Of a stretch of 53,673 bases of DNA, positions 13,943-43,398 are shown one piece after another. Position numbers and translations under genes: made by a program. The notes under the pieces were generated by a model. That model was not told the DNA's origin. It saw only the letters and a list, made by a program, of their open reading frames with translations, and did not search any database. Each line of letters begins with the position of its first letter. Position 1 is the stretch's first letter. This stretch comes from Escherichia phage mEp515: sequence record PP180003; one strand, given 5' to 3'.

Positions 13943-14167
13943 ATGATCGAAGATAAAGAAGTTGACGTAGAAATTCCTGACAGCGCTGATGAGCTTATCA
14001 CTTTCGGCGGCGGCCTGTATGAGTTCGATACATCGGCTGGGTGGGTTGATAAGTGGCCTCAGCCTACTCGCCAGGAATTAATTAACCGCAAATCATTCGG
14101 CGAAGATGCAGAACGCCTTGCTAATAACAAGTGGCTTAACAAGTTCATTGCGGAGGGTGATAAATGA
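13943..14167 (+). CDS. Hypothetical protein (74 aa)
   Basis: ORF in early operon. Confidence 0.45.
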   Translation: MIEDKEVDVEIPDSADELITFGGGLYEFDTSAGWVDKWPQPTRQELINRKSFGEDAERLANNKWLNKFIAEGDK

Positions 14168-14277
14168 ACCTTGCAAAAATTGCCGCATTGCTTGCGGCTT
14201 TGTCTATCGCTGTGCTGTATCTCAGCGTATCGCTTTATATAACGGTAGCGATCATTAAACTCATTGCTAACATGTGA
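14164..14277 (+). CDS. Small membrane peptide (37 aa, MNLAKIAALLAALSIAVLYLSVSLYITVAIIKLIANM)
   Basis: ATGA overlap with upstream stop; single TM helix. Confidence 0.3.
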   Translation: MNLAKIAALLAALSIAVLYLSVSLYITVAIIKLIANM

Positions 14278-14285
14278 GGTTAATC

Positions 14286-14405
14286 ATGAAAGTCGGTAAG
14301 GATATTGTGACGGTCGCGTTTTGCATTATTTGCTTCCTATTTGTGGTTGTGTTTTGTGGCGGATTTGCAGCGCTGGTTAGCTTTATTTTCAGGGGATTGT
14401 TGTGA
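14286..14405 (+). CDS. Small membrane peptide (39 aa, MKVGKDIVTVAFCIICFLFVVVFCGGFAALVSFIFRGLL)
   Basis: GAGG SD; hydrophobic; stop overlaps next start. Confidence 0.3.
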   Translation: MKVGKDIVTVAFCIICFLFVVVFCGGFAALVSFIFRGLL

Positions 14406-14677
14406 TGAAAACATGGGATGCAAAGACTGGTGATCTTGTTGTATTGCCTGAATATCGTGATGACCCTGGCCTGGTTGTACTGAATAAGATGTATAACGAT
14501 CTAGATCGCCCGCTAGTGGTTAAATACCTGGACGGAACAATCATAGAACCGCGCTACTTTGATGATATTGAACTGAAGGCCCGCAACGTTCGCGTTAAGC
14601 CGTTCCGGGCTTATGTTGAGGACCACTGGCGGAAATTGTTCGCCGGACTGAATGGGATGTACGGCGTATGGCTATAA
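14405..14677 (+). CDS. Hypothetical protein (90 aa)
   Basis: ORF, translationally coupled. Confidence 0.45.
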   Translation: MKTWDAKTGDLVVLPEYRDDPGLVVLNKMYNDLDRPLVVKYLDGTIIEPRYFDDIELKARNVRVKPFRAYVEDHWRKLFAGLNGMYGVWL

Positions 14678-23637: not shown

Positions 23638-23838
23638 ATGTTCGACAGAATACGGGAGGCGTGTGCGTATGTGACTGGGGCCGTAACTGCTTTTTTCGGC
23701 GCTATAACCATCAATGACGTCGCTGTTTTCGTTGGTATCTTATCAACCATAGGCACATTTGCCGTTAATTATTACTTCAAATCACAGGAGAACAAGCGGG
23801 CGCAAGAGGAACACGACGCGCGAATGGGGAATAAGTAA
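23638..23838 (+). CDS. Holin, probable pinholin (two TM helices)
   Basis: 66 aa; two hydrophobic helices and basic C-terminus; GGAGG SD; directly precedes SAR endolysin. Confidence 0.65.
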   Translation: MFDRIREACAYVTGAVTAFFGAITINDVAVFVGILSTIGTFAVNYYFKSQENKRAQEEHDARMGNK

Positions 23839-24330
23839 ATGATTAGCCAATCGCTGAAAAACAAGATTGTTGCGGCGGCGGCTGGTGGGGCGATCGCTAT
23901 TGCGGCGGTGATGATTAAGCCATTAGAGGGCGTGGAATACGATCCTTATCGTGATGTTGTTGGCGTATGGACTGTTTGCTACGGTCACACCGGAAAAGAC
24001 ATCATGCTTGGGAAGACTTACACGCAATCAGAATGCGATGCTTTGTTGAACAAAGATCTACATAAGACCGCAAAAGCGATTGACCCATATATCAAAGTCG
24101 AAATATCAGATTTTACCCGCGCTGCACTTTATTCATTCGCCTATAACGTAGGCGCAACCAACTTCAAAACATCAACCTTATTAAAGCTACTCAATGACGG
24201 CAAGAAATCAGAGGCGTGCGCACAGCTTAAGCGCTGGGTATACGCTGGCGGTAAGAAGTGGCAAGGCCTGGTTAACCGCCGCGAGGTTGAATATGCCGTT
24301 TGCGAATGGGGTGAGAAATGGACAAGGTGA
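23839..24330 (+). CDS. SAR endolysin (T4-lysozyme-like, GH24)
   Basis: N-terminal signal-anchor-release segment [17 protein letters not shown]; catalytic E-x8-D-x5-T pattern ([23 protein letters not shown]). Confidence 0.85.
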
Positions 24331-24788
24331 AGACGTTAATCATCGCCGTTGTTGTTTGCATTATTGCCGGACTGATCGCCGTAACGTGTTATTACCAGGG
24401 TGAAACGGCAAGGTTACAGGAAGAAGTCACGGTGACGAAAGGCGCACTGAAGACAGCAAGTAACACTATTCAGCAGATGAAGGAGCGAAACGCCGAACTG
24501 TCAAAACTTGATAAGAGGTATCACGATGAGATTAAAGCTATCAGATCTGACATTGCCGATCTGCGCACTGGCATTGATAACGGTACTATCAGGCTGCGCG
24601 TCAACGCCGTGCCAATGCGAACAGACAGTAATACCGGAACCTCCAGCCGCATTGATGGAGCCACCTGCGAACCTACTGCCGACGCTAAATCGGCTTATCT
24701 ATCCCTCAGAGAACAACTAAAAATAAAAGACGCACAGATCACTGGCCTACAGGACTACATCAAAACGCAGTGCTTACGCAAAGAATAA
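24318..24788 (+). CDS. Rz-like i-spanin
   Basis: 156 aa; N-terminal TM helix then coiled-coil periplasmic domain. Confidence 0.7.
24526..24720 (+). CDS. Rz1-like o-spanin lipoprotein embedded in +1 frame of Rz
   Basis: Signal peptide with lipobox VLSGC, Pro-rich mature part ([16 protein letters not shown]); GAGGT SD. Confidence 0.55.
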   Translation: MRLKLSDLTLPICALALITVLSGCASTPCQCEQTVIPEPPAALMEPPANLLPTLNRLIYPSENN

Positions 24789-25124
24789 CAGCGCGTGGAC
24801 GTGTCGCCGTTTCCGCCAGCCAGCCATAACCGGGCCAATCCTTCCCGCGAGCGACGGCAGAAATTCAAAAACACGTAATACCGGATCAACAGTCCCATTA
24901 ACAGGTCAGGCGCTACCTGGGTAGAAGAAAGCGTCATTACTCACCTGCCATGCGTAGGACGAGCGCCCGGATCTGTTTATCAGAGATGTTAAGCAGGTCC
25001 AGATTTATAAAATTCTGGAAACGGTACTCATGCAGCGCCGTTTTCAGTGTTTTATAGCTGTTTTCACTCCCTGCGGTGTCCAGTTTTGCGGGGGTTATAT
25101 TTTTCAGGATAGAGGAATATTCTG

Positions 25125-25709
25125 ATGGCTAAGGGTAAAGGCATTAAGTTGCCTCAATTCAAAGTTCCGCTCTTTGAGCATACAACAGTTTTCTTCTGCC
25201 CGACCCGCGACATGTTTTATGAATTTTGCGAAAGGGCCGGAATACCAATCGAACCTGATTTCGAACTGGCAGGAGGATTAACGCTTACTTGTACTGGTGA
25301 GAAAGGCGGTAATTTCTATGTGATCGCAGTATTCGACAATGAGTTAGGTACGCTGGTACACGAATGCGCTCACACTACATTCCACGTTCTAAGCGATGTA
25401 GGTGTCGTGGCAACCACTGATCCAACTCATCCGGCAAACGAGACATATGCTTACATGGTAGGCCGTATCTTTGACGCATTCTTCCCAATCCTGGCAGAGT
25501 CAAACGAAGCACAGATTGCAGCAATGCAGGCGGCTGAAGTTGTCGAGAAGGCATTAGATCAGGCAGAAAAGGCGACTGATGCAGCAGAGCAAGCAGTAAA
25601 ACAGGCAGAGGAACCGAAAGAAGAGAAAAAACCAGTTAAGAAAGGCAAACGTAAGCCTAAAGCAAAAGAGGCGCTTGTGCCGCGTGTTATGAGATTTAAA
25701 CGGGGGTGA
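25125..25709 (+). CDS. Hypothetical protein with HExxH motif and polybasic C-terminal tail
   Basis: 194 aa; HECAH zincin-like motif; C-terminus KKPVKKGKRKPKAKEALVPRVMRFKRG. Confidence 0.5.
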   Translation: MAKGKGIKLPQFKVPLFEHTTVFFCPTRDMFYEFCERAGIPIEPDFELAGGLTLTCTGEKGGNFYVIAVFDNELGTLVHECAHTTFHVLSDVGVVATTDPTHPANETYAYMVGRIFDAFFPILAESNEAQIAAMQAAEVVEKALDQAEKATDAAEQAVKQAEEPKEEKKPVKKGKRKPKAKEALVPRVMRFKRG

Positions 25710-25711
25710 TT

Positions 25712-25786
25712 ATGATTGACCCGCTCATTATCCTTTCTGCCTGTGTCGCTGTATGGCTGGCGATCATGATATTCATCGAAAGCTGA
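25712..25786 (+). CDS. Mini-ORF 1, hydrophobic peptide (24 aa, MIDPLIILSACVAVWLAIMIFIES)
   Basis: ATG 3 nt after upstream stop; GGGGG upstream. Confidence 0.3.
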   Translation: MIDPLIILSACVAVWLAIMIFIES

Positions 25787-25796
25787 AGGTGTTCAC

Positions 25797-25877
25797 ATGA
25801 ACGCATACGAAATGCTATTGCTGGTGGCTGTAGTTGTAGTCATTGCCGTTGATTTCTATCGAGGGTTTAAAAGATGA
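25797..25877 (+). CDS. Mini-ORF 2, hydrophobic peptide (26 aa, MNAYEMLLLVAVVVVIAVDFYRGFKR)
   Basis: GAAGGTG SD at 5-nt spacing. Confidence 0.3.
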   Translation: MNAYEMLLLVAVVVVIAVDFYRGFKR

Positions 25878-25945
25878 AAGAAGCAGACTTCTTTTGCATG
25901 ATTGTAGTGATCGTCATCATTGCGGTGATTTTAAACCTTAGTTGA
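25874..25945 (+). CDS. Mini-ORF 3, hydrophobic peptide (23 aa, MKEADFFCMIVVIVIIAVILNLS)
   Basis: ATGA overlap with mini-ORF 2; GAGGG SD. Confidence 0.3.
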   Translation: MKEADFFCMIVVIVIIAVILNLS

Positions 25946-25962
25946 ATCGCAGGGGGTTGAAA

Positions 25963-26031
25963 ATGAAATGGCTTGATTTCTTTTTCCTGATTGTTGCGAT
26001 TGTTCTAACCATGACCGCGCTTGCTCAATAG
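25963..26031 (+). CDS. Mini-ORF 4, hydrophobic peptide (22 aa, MKWLDFFFLIVAIVLTMTALAQ)
   Basis: AGGGGG SD at 6-nt spacing; paralogous to mini-ORF 3. Confidence 0.3.
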   Translation: MKWLDFFFLIVAIVLTMTALAQ

Positions 26032-26194
26032 GTTATGGCTTGGACGCGCATTTTATGCGCTTCCTAAACTTAGTAAGCCAAAGAAAGAGAATGGCAAACA
26101 ATGAAATATCTATCCAGTTGGTTTGGTGTATCAATATACTTCGCAACATTAATCGAGTGTTTATATATAGTGAATAAATTTTAAGAGGTGAATT

Positions 26195-26680
26195 ATGGCC
26201 CGCACTAAAAAGGCAAAGGCTGACGATAAAAAGACAGCCGCAAAAAGGGTGGGCCGTCCGCATGGTTATACCGAAGAAAAGGCATTAGAGATCTGTGAGC
26301 TGGTGGCGGACGGTCAAAGTATTAACAAGATTTCGAAGATGCCTGATATGCCTGCGCGTTCAACAATCCTTAAATGGTTCAGAGACGTGCCAGAGTTCTC
26401 GGACATGTACATACGCGCGAAGGAGATCGGTTTTGAGGTATTGGCTGATGAGATCATAGATATAGCAGATGCAGCGGAGAACATTGATAAAGACGAATGC
26501 CGCCGCCATCAACTGATGATTGAAACGCGTAAATGGCTATTGGCAAAACTGCAACCGCGTAAATATGGTGAACGCGTCACGCAGGAAATCGTTGGTAACA
26601 GGGAGGAAGCACCCGTCCAGGTAGAAGTCACGAAAGAAGAGATCGCCCGCATCGTCCAGGAAGTAGAAGACGAGGTGTGA
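26195..26680 (+). CDS. Terminase small subunit
   Basis: 161 aa; N-terminal HTH (GRPHGYTEEKALEICELVADGQSINKISKM), acidic C-terminus; immediately upstream of large terminase. Confidence 0.7.
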   Translation: MARTKKAKADDKKTAAKRVGRPHGYTEEKALEICELVADGQSINKISKMPDMPARSTILKWFRDVPEFSDMYIRAKEIGFEVLADEIIDIADAAENIDKDECRRHQLMIETRKWLLAKLQPRKYGERVTQEIVGNREEAPVQVEVTKEEIARIVQEVEDEV

Positions 26681-28161
26681 TTATGTTGACAATCAAAGAA
26701 CGAGTTATTCAGTCCAAATGTGAAAACGATGGCCTGTTTTTCAATCGCTATTTCTATAAACAAGCGAATGGAACGAAGATGTTAATCTCAGGCCATCATT
26801 TAGCTATCCGTGATGCACTACAACGCGTTATTAATGGTGAGATAACCCGCCTCATCATTAACATTCCCCCAGGGTACGGTAAAACTATGATCGCGACTAT
26901 CAACATGATGGCACGGTCCCTCGCAATAAATCCCCGCACAAGATTCCTTCACGTTTCCTATTCCAACAACCTGGCGCTACTCAATTCCTCTACTGTAAGA
27001 AACATGATCTGTACGCCTGAATATCAGGCAATGTGGCCCATGAAGATCCGCAACGATGCAAACTCAAAATCGATGTGGTGGACCGAATACGGTGGCGGCG
27101 TGTATGCAACGTCATCGCTTGGCCAGGTAACTGGGTTCCGTGCAGGATACATGGAATCAGGATTTAACGGCGCGTTAATCATCGACGACCCATTAAAACC
27201 CGCTGACGCTTACTCTGACGTGGTGAGAAAGCAGGTTAACACCAACTATAACGACACGCTTGCTTCACGTCTGGCTGTGCAAACAACGCCTGTCATAGTC
27301 ATCATGCAGCGCATCCACTACGATGATTTGTCCGGCTACCTGTTACGAGGTGGGAGCGGTGAAAAGTGGTATCACCTGAACCTGCCAGTGAAGATCGACA
27401 ACAGCATCGACTACTGGGATCTGTACCCTGAAAACGAGTTCGCAATCCCTATCGCTCACAACCTGCATGACGGCTGGCTATGGCCTAAAAAGCACAATGA
27501 CGCCCATGAAGCTGGACTGAAAGCACACAGGAGGTCATTCGAGGCCCAGTACATGCAGCGCCCGCGTAAATTCGACGAAGAGGGTGCATTGTGGACTGAA
27601 GCCATGATAACCGCTGCGCACCGGATGCAGATAACGCAGGACAAGATCCGCACGGTGATAGCCATCGACCCGGCGACAACATCATCTGATGAGTCGGACG
27701 AAACCGGGATTGTGGCATGTTCCGCTTATGGTGGCGGCAAGTACGCACAGTATTCTGTAGACGGTGACTATTCAGGCCGCATGTCGCCTAACGACTGGGC
27801 GCAAGCAGCAATGAGCGCATACGACATTCATGAGGCTGACGCGATGGTTATCGAAACCAACCAGGGCGGTGAAATGGCAGAGGCCACGCTACGCAATGCC
27901 GGATTTAAAGGCCGCATTGTTAAGGTGCACGCAAGCAAGGGTAAATTTGCCCGCGCCGAACCAATATCTGCATTGTATGCACAGGGTAGGGTAGTCCACA
28001 CTGGCAGCCTGTACACACTGGAAAATCAAATGATGGAATATGTGCCAGCTACCGCCAAAAAATCCCCTGACCGTATGGACGCTATGGTATGGGGTATCAC
28101 TGAATTAAGCCAGCCACAGGCAATGGGCCTCATGTTACCGAAGCGCCTGCGCGGATTTTAA
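26677..28161 (+). CDS. Terminase large subunit
   Basis: 494 aa; ATPase Walker A-like PPGYGKT and C-terminal nuclease domain; GTG start overlapping terS stop (or ATG 26683). Confidence 0.85.
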   Translation: MIMLTIKERVIQSKCENDGLFFNRYFYKQANGTKMLISGHHLAIRDALQRVINGEITRLIINIPPGYGKTMIATINMMARSLAINPRTRFLHVSYSNNLALLNSSTVRNMICTPEYQAMWPMKIRNDANSKSMWWTEYGGGVYATSSLGQVTGFRAGYMESGFNGALIIDDPLKPADAYSDVVRKQVNTNYNDTLASRLAVQTTPVIVIMQRIHYDDLSGYLLRGGSGEKWYHLNLPVKIDNSIDYWDLYPENEFAIPIAHNLHDGWLWPKKHNDAHEAGLKAHRRSFEAQYMQRPRKFDEEGALWTEAMITAAHRMQITQDKIRTVIAIDPATTSSDESDETGIVACSAYGGGKYAQYSVDGDYSGRMSPNDWAQAAMSAYDIHEADAMVIETNQGGEMAEATLRNAGFKGRIVKVHASKGKFARAEPISALYAQGRVVHTGSLYTLENQMMEYVPATAKKSPDRMDAMVWGITELSQPQAMGLMLPKRLRGF

Positions 28162-43001: not shown

Positions 43002-43139
43002 TCAGTAGTTAATGTGCATCAAACTCATTGGGTGAGCGTGCGCCATGTTGTTTGCTATTGCCGCCCAGTCCCAACCAGCAGCGTGAACACCAAATACGAT
43101 CAAGCCCATTATTATTAGCGCCAAAACTTCTATTTTCAT
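43002..43139 (-). CDS. Small membrane peptide (45 aa)
   Basis: AGGTGA SD; MKIEVLALIIMGLIVFGVHAAG TM segment. Confidence 0.3.
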   Translation of the reverse strand: MKIEVLALIIMGLIVFGVHAAGWDWAAIANNMAHAHPMSLMHINY

Positions 43140-43149
43140 AATCTGTCAC

Positions 43150-43398
43150 CTATAAGTTATCACGCAGATAATTAACGCCCTTATCAGTAACGAATGAATG
43201 GTTGACCTGGTTTTCATCCGTCATGATGATGAATAACTTTTCCTGTAGGTATTTCGCTTTCGGGTACAGTGTTAAACAGACCTGGTACAGTATCCCGCGC
43301 TCAATCAGCAAATGAATAAATTCGTGTTCATGATAACCGATAAGGCGGGCGGCCTGTTTCAACGTGTACACATAATCCCCGTGATTACGCCGCGCCAT
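43150..43398 (-). CDS. Small HTH DNA-binding protein (82 aa)
   Basis: HTH-like YTLKQAARLIGYHEHEFIHLLIERGIL. Confidence 0.5.
   Translation of the reverse strand: MARRNHGDYVYTLKQAARLIGYHEHEFIHLLIERGILYQVCLTLYPKAKYLQEKLFIIMTDENQVNHSFVTDKGVNYLRDNL

Follow-up and report, generated by a model that had tools for sequence, protein, structure and literature searches.

Tandem genes for predicted single-helix membrane peptides between gp49 and the terminase genes of mEp021-like coliphages

Short membrane peptides of bacteria and phages

Bacterial small membrane proteins such as AcrZ, MgrB, KdpF, and CydX, together with the hydrophobic intergenic small open reading frames of Enterobacteriaceae, are shorter than 50 amino acids (aa), consist of one helix with almost no soluble part, usually escape annotation, and show purifying selection. 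Their presumed mode of action is the binding of larger membrane proteins (PMC12648545, PMC11188072). Small size, a predicted single helix, lack of annotation, and purifying selection are shared by the products of a tandem array of five mini-open reading frames (ORFs) at positions 25712–26184 of a 53,673-nucleotide (nt) stretch of DNA from Escherichia phage mEp515 (PP180003). This whole stretch is the window, and its numbering is used throughout. The segment 25100–26700 is 100% identical to MH706966.1 (Enterobacteria phage mEp021), the window coordinate being the record coordinate minus 700, and the gene names and the phage name mEp021 follow MH706966. The array peptides, with at most 50 aa and a single predicted transmembrane helix, are of the size of small membrane proteins. 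In contrast, the described small membrane proteins are encoded by single genes beside the gene of their partner, whereas up to 13 genes are chained in one phage operon in the array, which shows modular copy-number variation and has no known partner and no sequence match. By analogy, the array peptides would work most like the bacterial small membrane proteins.

Other short membrane peptides resemble the array products in part. The type I toxins of E. coli (IbsA-E, LdrA-D, ShoB, TisB, and Hok) are hydrophobic single-helix peptides of 19–50 aa, some of them encoded as tandem paralogues, which act by membrane depolarization (PMC12648545). These toxins are each transcribed from a separate promoter with a structured leader and are paired with an antisense RNA; no such element was found for the array. 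Holins, antiholins, and accessory lysis proteins are likewise small membrane proteins encoded near the endolysin gene in the late operons of phages, where several occur in variable number. In Gordonia and Mycobacterium phages, one to four holin-like transmembrane domain (TMD) proteins are reported to follow the lysis cassette (PMC9671378, PMC13056207). Such proteins are typically about 60–130 aa long, carry charged C-terminal tails, and are encoded inside the cassette, whereas the array peptides are 22–47 aa long, mostly without a charged tail, are encoded beyond a terminator and gp49, and match no holin family.

Single-gene lysis proteins, such as the 37-aa protein of phage M and protein E of phiX174, are also very short phage peptides with a single TMD. 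In single-stranded RNA and DNA phages, these proteins evolve fast and de novo and inhibit an inner-membrane enzyme in a sequence-specific manner. However, each is the sole lysis gene of a tiny phage and is often embedded in another gene, whereas mEp021 has a holin, an endolysin, and spanins. Tandem short ORFs with their own ribosome-binding sites and no leader are further known from the psm-alpha operon of Staphylococcus and the aureocin A70 operon. These operons belong to Gram-positive hosts and contain three or four tandem ORFs of 20–35 aa, and their amphipathic or cationic peptides have dedicated ABC exporters. In contrast, the array peptides show uniform hydrophobicity and a charge from acidic to neutral, and no gene for a transporter lies close by.

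When up to 10 of the peptides were compared with PHROGs, Pfam, and NCBIfam, including every model for type I toxins and small proteins, no meaningful match emerged (the PADLOC library was not searched), and the five mEp021 peptides had no match among the holin families of Pfam and PHROGs. On the defining features open to testing, the array peptides do not belong to the type I toxins, the holins, or the bacteriocins. A literature search, itself incomplete, found no description of a chain of 3–13 genes for modular 22–47-aa transmembrane peptides. According to PMC11893012, a paper on the mEpimmI lineage, to which mEp021-like phages belong, this phage group is common in the human gut; neither "transmembrane" nor "terminase" occurs in the paper, and none of the passages seen discusses the ORFs.

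Five mini-genes under frame-specific selection

The comparisons described below showed positions 25712–26184 to be a block of five genuine genes, probably polycistronic and coupled in translation, for predicted single-helix peptides of 22–27 residues. All five ORFs start with ATG and lie on the + strand. The features of the array are as follows.

25712–25786 (+): mini-gene 1 (ORF1, family C), 24 aa, MIDPLIILSACVAVWLAIMIFIES; Shine-Dalgarno (SD) motif GGGGG at 25702–25706; one transmembrane helix, net charge −2
25797–25877 (+): mini-gene 2 (ORF2, family F), 26 aa, MNAYEMLLLVAVVVVIAVDFYRGFKR; SD GAAGGTG at 25785–25791; N-terminus acidic, C-terminus basic
25874–25945 (+): mini-gene 3 (ORF3, family G), 23 aa, MKEADFFCMIVVIVIIAVILNLS; SD GAGGG at 25861–25865; ATGA overlap with the ORF2 stop
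25963–26031 (+): mini-gene 4 (ORF4, family H), 22 aa, MKWLDFFFLIVAIVLTMTALAQ; SD AGGGGG at 25951–25956
26032–26100 (+): 69-nt non-coding gap, the only one within the array; hairpin GCGCAT-TTT-ATGCGC at 26046–26060
26101–26184 (+): mini-gene 5 (ORF5, family M), 27 aa, MKYLSSWFGVSIYFATLIECLYIVNKF; last module, less hydrophobic than the other four

ORFs 1–4 are preceded by a purine-rich SD-like motif located 5–8 nt upstream of the start, and ORF5 also has an SD-like site. A single hydrophobic helix makes up nearly all of each peptide, together with a short N-terminus that is net acidic in four of them. For ORFs 1–5, the highest Kyte-Doolittle averages over 19 residues are 2.72, 2.24, 2.82, 2.24, and 1.56, and their net charges, read from the sequences, are −2, +1, −1, 0, and +1, with uniform hydrophobic cores. 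The C-termini read …FIES, …YRGFKR, …LNLS, …ALAQ, and …NKF in the same order, and only ORF2 has a charged tail. When ORF3 and ORF4 are aligned from the N-terminus without gaps, 7 residues out of 21 are common to both (z = 4.7 relative to shuffled sequences), and both belong to a G/H/K/J subgroup with the common start M-[KRS]-x-x-D-F. ORF5 is homologous to MKELFDWLEVLTYCASFVACVYIINKY of relatives, and its mEp021-type variant also occurs in loci L016 and L035. Dinucleotide-preserving shuffles of 25712–26184 gave five hydrophobic ORFs of 20–50 aa in none of 5000 replicates; the maximum was four, reached in two. The first 37 nt of the 69-nt gap, hairpin included, are identical in the related phages mEp044 and mEp013, where the gap is conserved. 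As an RNA element, the gap gave a fold z-score of −1.39, which is not significant. A remnant of modules I-L was rejected as its origin, the sequence being unrelated to those modules.

The coding nature of the ORFs was assessed on a comparison set of 51 distinct spacers from E. coli phages and prophages (457–1307 bp, duplicates removed), in which each hydrophobic ORF was assigned to one of about 20 peptide families. Nei-Gojobori comparisons were pooled over the unique sequences of each family; the counts are pairwise without correction for phylogeny, and the numbers are approximate. In the proposed frames, the ratio of nonsynonymous to synonymous differences (pN/pS) was 0.26 (0.12–0.36 for families with at least four unique sequences), and no stop codon was present. 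In contrast, the other forward frames gave 0.96 and 1.30 and the reverse frames 0.83, 0.37, and 1.71, and each of these frames contained 152–923 stops, with 152 in the best antisense frame. The low antisense value of 0.37 is what sharing of third positions would be expected to produce, and stops interrupt that frame. Approximate as the counts are, they separate the frames unambiguously. The numbers of variable sites at codon positions 1, 2, and 3 were 149, 101, and 257.

The strength of this constraint can be compared with that on the neighboring genes of the same loci, which gave a pN/pS of 0.17 for the terminase small subunit (TerS) and 0.08 for gp49. Judged by these values, the micro-genes are constrained almost as strongly as their neighbors. 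In addition, replacements of one hydrophobic residue by another occurred at only 0.28 of the synonymous rate, which points to selection on side-chain identity beyond mere hydrophobicity.

An earlier note, written from the letters of the window by themselves, had described four tandem mini-ORFs with their own SDs and ATGA coupling, hydrophobic single-helix products, paralogy of ORF3 and ORF4, and a doubtful fifth ORF. Re-reading of the sequence returned the same coordinates, sequences, and SDs; hydrophobicity and paralogy are borne out by the values given above, and the doubtful ORF proved to be family M, the sole module found in all 51 arrays. The core reading of the note, separate mini-ORFs encoding such peptides, is strongly supported. 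Purifying selection confined to the proposed frames, ORFs kept intact in about 50 relatives, and spacing like that of an operon argue together that the mini-ORFs, the fifth included, are genuine, separately initiated genes, and it is very probable that they are translated membrane microprotein genes. The resulting finding is substantially richer than the note described.

None of the five mini-ORFs is annotated in MH706966, where the order is class II holin, lysozyme, Rz-type lysis protein, intrinsic terminator, gp49, a blank stretch of 485 nt, and the terminase small and large subunits. The array lies in this blank stretch. Its immediate neighbors are both annotated.

25125–25709 (+): gp49 (mEp021_49), hypothetical protein, 194 aa; upstream neighbor
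26195–26680 (+): terminase small subunit (TerS), Sf6 type; PF20901 Sf6_terminase, E = 2.8e-37; downstream neighbor

The gp49 stop lies 2 nt before the ATG of ORF1, and the ORF5 stop lies 10 nt before the ATG of TerS. The gp49/array junction ...AAACGGGGGTGATT|ATG is kept in relatives, whichever module stands first. The array belongs to one late-strand block with the lysis cassette. It starts 924 nt downstream of the Rz stop, and the interval holds a 336-nt spacer with the annotated intrinsic terminator near 25015–25047, followed by gp49. The position between lysis cassette and terminase proposed in the earlier note therefore stands, but direct adjacency does not, since this spacer and gp49 intervene on the lysis side.

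The array in related phages

Homology searches recovered arrays with intact ORFs in about 50 relatives, all of them in the mEp021-like group. An array lies between the gp49 homologue and TerS in five related phages (mEp044, mEp010, mEp554, mEp013, and MagusPhagus), and arrays of the same type were found in that position in 4 E. coli prophages among 35 megablast-positive complete genomes, in about 47 IMG/VR contigs, and in two further contigs. In nearly all relatives, the array is longer than that of mEp021. The arrays contain 3–13 modules (median 10) and display 37 architectures in the 51 spacers, and coding sequence makes up a median of 94% of the array span. The length differences between relatives (457 to 1307 bp) correspond to gain or loss of whole ORFs, with peptide lengths of 22–47 aa over all families. 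Module order is fixed as A(/A2-A5)-B-B2-N-C-D-O-E-F-G-H-I-J-K-L-M, without a single violation in 51 arrays. In this scheme, mEp021 is C-F-G-H-M, the second-shortest array of the set; the shortest, L045, consists of three modules only (A-B-M). The records of relatives list some of the longer array ORFs as "hypothetical protein", as called by PHANOTATE or by the pipeline of the submitter.

The five families present in mEp021 differ in distribution. Family C occurs in 48 of the 51 arrays and family F in 50; every copy is intact in both (48/48 and 50/50), and both have a pN/pS of 0.28. Family G is found in 18/51 arrays with a pN/pS of 0.24. Family H, present in 47/51, has a pN/pS of 0.12 and is the most constrained of the well-sampled families. 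All 51 arrays contain family M, always last before terS, with an ATG start in 49 and a pN/pS of 0.24. Over all families, the first seven residues are net acidic in 15 of 20 consensus sequences, and several families have a basic C-terminus.

The modules are arranged as in an operon. Of about 425 junctions between modules, nearly all have a distance of −14 to +18 nt and 85 are ATGA overlaps, and an SD-like tetramer is present at −18 to −4 in 435 of 476 module instances. Several families are paralogous by N-anchored ungapped comparison, with z-scores of 6.5 for N-F, 6.2 for G-K, and 4.7 for both G-H and H-K, and family F is also paralogous to D. Junction sequences follow position rather than module. 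Where D-E is absent, F stands behind the upstream junction of D, and a K that directly follows F carries the upstream junction of G. In longer arrays, paralogues share repeats of 25–27 nt that comprise the junction plus the start (78–84% identity). Because junctions follow position and paralogues share these repeats, the simplest reading is that arrays expand and contract by unequal recombination, which would take place where the SD/start regions of paralogues resemble each other.

In-frame fusions of neighboring modules were also seen. In L012, B and C form one ORF with two helices, and in L037, module E is extended. This suggests that fusion of modules may be a route from one-helix to multi-helix proteins. 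Insertions of HNH endonuclease genes vary between relatives: one lies between gp49 and the array in mEp013 (L005 846–1331), and others lie between endolysin and Rz in two metagenomic relatives (L104 2752–3273 and L105 1437–1955).

Outside this group, no relatives were detected. A tblastn search with concatenated families, run against 50,697 phage records and 72,556 plasmids, hit only the six mEp021-like phages and no plasmid. For family L (47 aa), the only relatives are close ones from E. coli that share at least 70% identity. None of the five mEp021 peptides occurs among 15 billion collected protein predictions, since ORFs this short are not called as genes. P22-like phages have homologues of gp49 (35–45% identity; ST64T Orf129 and epsilon34 gp70) at the corresponding place between lysis genes and terS, with a 134-aa ORF instead of mini-ORFs behind them. 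At four distant terS loci of the Sf6 type, the upstream gaps are only 100–220 bp, which leaves no room for an array. For these reasons, the array appears to be specific to the mEpimmI (mEp021-like) coliphage lineage. On the sequences compared, it represents a lineage-specific, rapidly reshuffled set of predicted transmembrane micro-genes in a prevalent group of gut coliphages.

Since the gp49 homologues of P22-like phages precede the 134-aa ORF, the relation of gp49 to the array is positional only, and a functional link between them was rejected. The protein matches phrog_1365 (function unknown) and carries an HExxH motif (H79-E80-C-A-H83), of which H79, E80, and H83 are invariant in 14 homologues. 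H87 and E106 are also invariant, and the tail is Lys-rich and disordered. No Pfam family and no PDB sequence match were found for gp49, and the best Foldseek match of a pLDDT-77 model (E = 0.046) was not significant. The label "PolyVal metallopeptidase" on one homologue in nr was accordingly not confirmed. A scan for gp49 over one genome per species found nothing, and some P22-like records, P22 included, contain a 36%-identical copy of gp49 near sieA. On the other side of the array, the portal-position gene downstream of the large terminase in the prophage of E. coli MFDS1019527 (L007 5198–5319) is named "anti-CBASS protein Acb1 family protein" in RefSeq, while its equivalent in mEp021 is annotated as portal protein; the discrepancy may stem from the naming alone or from fusion to a further domain.

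Possible roles and rival explanations

The context of the array permits a tentative account of its expression. The lysis genes, gp49, and the terminase genes would share one late transcript, on which the array would be translated by coupling. The peptides would thus be made late, together with the lysis and packaging proteins, since the array is fitted closely between gp49 and terS and no promoter or terminator of its own was detected. In 24700–26700, promoter-like sites numbered 4 against 2.7 ± 1.6 expected, none of them convincing, in a crude consensus scan that leaves expression in a lysogen possible. Terminator-like sites showed no excess in the same region, and Rfam gave no match at E up to 1. 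After translation, the peptides would insert into the inner membrane, with a predicted N-out/C-in orientation based on the acidic N-termini and, where present, the basic C-termini. Selection against hydrophobic-to-hydrophobic replacements suggests that they may act through sequence-specific helix-helix contacts rather than generic hydrophobicity. As a whole, the statement that the ORFs encode translated membrane microproteins with a late role at the membrane is the best explanation at hand, although one held at somewhat less than even odds.

For the nature of this late role, only a guess can be offered, and it is more tentative than the statement as a whole. The peptides may be accessory modulators of the membrane events that end infection, tuning the timing or robustness with which the two-TMD class II holin and the endolysin are triggered, either through binding to holin or endolysin or through altered membrane energization. 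In the lysis cassette, a holin of 66 aa containing two hydrophobic segments is combined with an endolysin, whose hydrophobic, G/A-rich N-terminus is similar to a membrane signal anchor, and with Rz, in which a lipoprotein ORF is embedded. At 23638–24330 (+), the cassette resembles the pinholin/signal-anchor-release (SAR) endolysin type. Firing of pinholin/SAR-endolysin systems depends on membrane energization, and the guess about lysis timing was drawn from this resemblance. The Rz1-like lipoprotein ORF (…LSGCAS), located inside Rz at 24508–24720, is not annotated in MH706966.

Several points weigh against such a role in lysis. A terminator, 336 nt, and a gene unrelated to lysis, gp49, separate the array from a lysis cassette that already looks complete. 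Most modules appear dispensable, because L045 retains only A-B-M, and they are hypervariable, a pattern that fits conflict genes no less well than lysis regulators. No holin or antiholin family was matched, the best hit being that of family L to the holin phrog_920 (E = 0.04). The variability of the helices showed no consistent 100-degree periodicity; just two families out of 15 reached p < 0.05, and the data thus do not establish a distinct binding face. Finally, the promoter scan was a crude consensus match, and the array might be expressed in lysogens.

The main rival explanation is that the array forms an arsenal for conflict, in which each microprotein binds a different inner-membrane protein of the host or of a rival phage and serves exclusion, counter-defense, or host takeover. 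Candidate targets would be the DNA-entry channels or transporters of superinfecting phages, membrane-acting effectors of abortive infection and defense, and membrane proteases. The presence of 37 architectures with 3–13 modules in phages that are otherwise 85–97% identical is consistent with this explanation, as are the many diverged paralogues, each under sequence-specific constraint, the restriction of the array to one lineage without homologues elsewhere in the searched sets, and the fact that the slot between lysis genes and terS holds other non-core genes in P22-like phages. Single-helix inhibitors of membrane proteins are also known, namely MgrB acting on PhoQ, AcrZ on AcrB, and the 37-aa lysis protein of phage M on MurJ (PMC12648545). 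However, no promoter or terminator of the moron type was found around or inside the array, no target is known, and the neighboring genes carry no annotation for defense or anti-defense, with the PADLOC library not searched. The late operon is also the wrong time for exclusion or counter-defense, which would need expression earlier in infection or from the prophage. A role in conflict is therefore considered rather unlikely. It is less likely still that the array is a "cassette library" of 22–47-aa intramembrane binders, each neutralizing a different inner-membrane protein, which would together form a combinatorial repertoire for counter-defense or exclusion; unequal recombination at the near-identical SD/start junctions would then shuffle, duplicate, and delete the cassettes.

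The remaining explanations are much less probable, each being contradicted by specific results. Translation of the mini-ORFs might simply keep ribosomes on the gp49-terS spacer, prevent Rho-dependent polarity, and feed terS, with the peptides as by-products. The tight coupling at both ends, the ATGA and −8 overlaps, the 94% coding share, and the universal presence of module M beside terS would suit such a relay, but a pure relay would require neither the conservation of amino acids (pN/pS 0.12–0.36) nor the avoidance of conservative hydrophobic swaps, and the spacer could simply be deleted, as at the distant Sf6-type terS loci, so this explanation is improbable. Accessory lysis, membrane depolarization, and a toxin-like role had been the functional options of the earlier note, and the type I form of the last would consist of Ibs/Ldr/Hok-type membrane toxins under antisense RNAs that stabilize the prophage. 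The tandem paralogues do recall the ibs and ldr repeats, and size and hydrophobicity are like those of the 19-aa IbsC and related toxins (PMC12648545). This option nevertheless fails on defining features: 10 peptides, scanned at E up to 10, matched none of the toxin families in NCBIfam and Pfam, no antitoxin small RNA was found in Rfam, promoter-like sites were not in excess on either strand, and units of 70–100 bp with a spacing of −14 to +18 nt leave no room for promoters, structured 5' untranslated regions, and antisense genes. It is thus regarded as very improbable. No greater probability is given to the explanation that the ORFs are not genes at all but chance ORFs of a T-rich or repeat-structured pac region, or that the other strand carries the true gene. 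The region has no annotation in MH706966 or from RefSeq/PGAP, one minus-strand frame has the low pN/pS of 0.37, and PGAP annotated a minus-strand ORF of 129 aa across modules A-D in one prophage (LSU61; L009 2290–2679). That ORF is probably an artefact, because in other copies the antisense frames are interrupted by numerous stops. The pac site of P22-type headful phages is part of terS itself. Neither the shuffles nor the stop counts (0 in the proposed frame against 152 in the best antisense frame) agree with chance ORFs, and the artefact of a repeat-structured cos/pac region that the note had considered is contradicted by the lack of any DNA repeat longer than 14 nt in the mEp021 array and by a nearly three-fold length range made up of whole ORFs. 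The note had held that loss of frame conservation in related phages would count against the genes, and the opposite was found. Least probable of all, the peptides might be freed at lysis to act on neighboring cells, in the manner of phenol-soluble modulins (PSMs) or leaderless multi-peptide bacteriocins. Tandem ORFs of about 20–30 aa with their own SDs are indeed found in the psm-alpha and aureocin A70 operons. However, the array peptides are hydrophobic throughout and, as read from the sequences with their net charges of −2 to +1, neither amphipathic nor cationic; no exporter or immunity gene is nearby, the neighbors being gp49 and terS; and the outer membrane of the Gram-negative host would block such peptides.

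Transmembrane microproteins represent a large, mostly uncharacterized share of the coding capacity of bacteria and phages, and peptides shorter than 30 aa are invisible to standard gene callers. The locus offers 37 natural architectures in a culturable temperate coliphage of E. coli K-12, with about 20 related but distinct helices of 22–47 aa under measurable selection, in which birth, duplication, fusion, and loss are visible. It is therefore a tractable system for the specificity of bare transmembrane helices, for peptide function, and for the evolution of micro-gene families. An annotation gain of five genes, and up to 13, is due at this locus in MH706966 and the RefSeq prophages.

Two more genes are due for annotation in the early region of mEp021, where unannotated small membrane genes lie on the + strand at 14164–14277 (37 aa, MNLAKIAALLAALSIAVLYLSVSLYITVAIIKLIANM) and 14286–14405 (39 aa, MKVGKDIVTVAFCIICFLFVVVFCGGFAALVSFIFRGLL). 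This pair sits between mEp021_22 and the "putative toxin-antitoxin subunit" mEp021_23. It is conserved as protein in mEp013 and in MagusPhagus, the latter only 70% identical in DNA, and is annotated in both. A third ORF at 14418–14483 overlaps mEp021_23 in another frame and is probably spurious. In addition, two consecutive hydrophobic mini-ORFs of 45 and 23 aa are located on the − strand in the tail-gene region, at 43002–43139 and 43146–43217.

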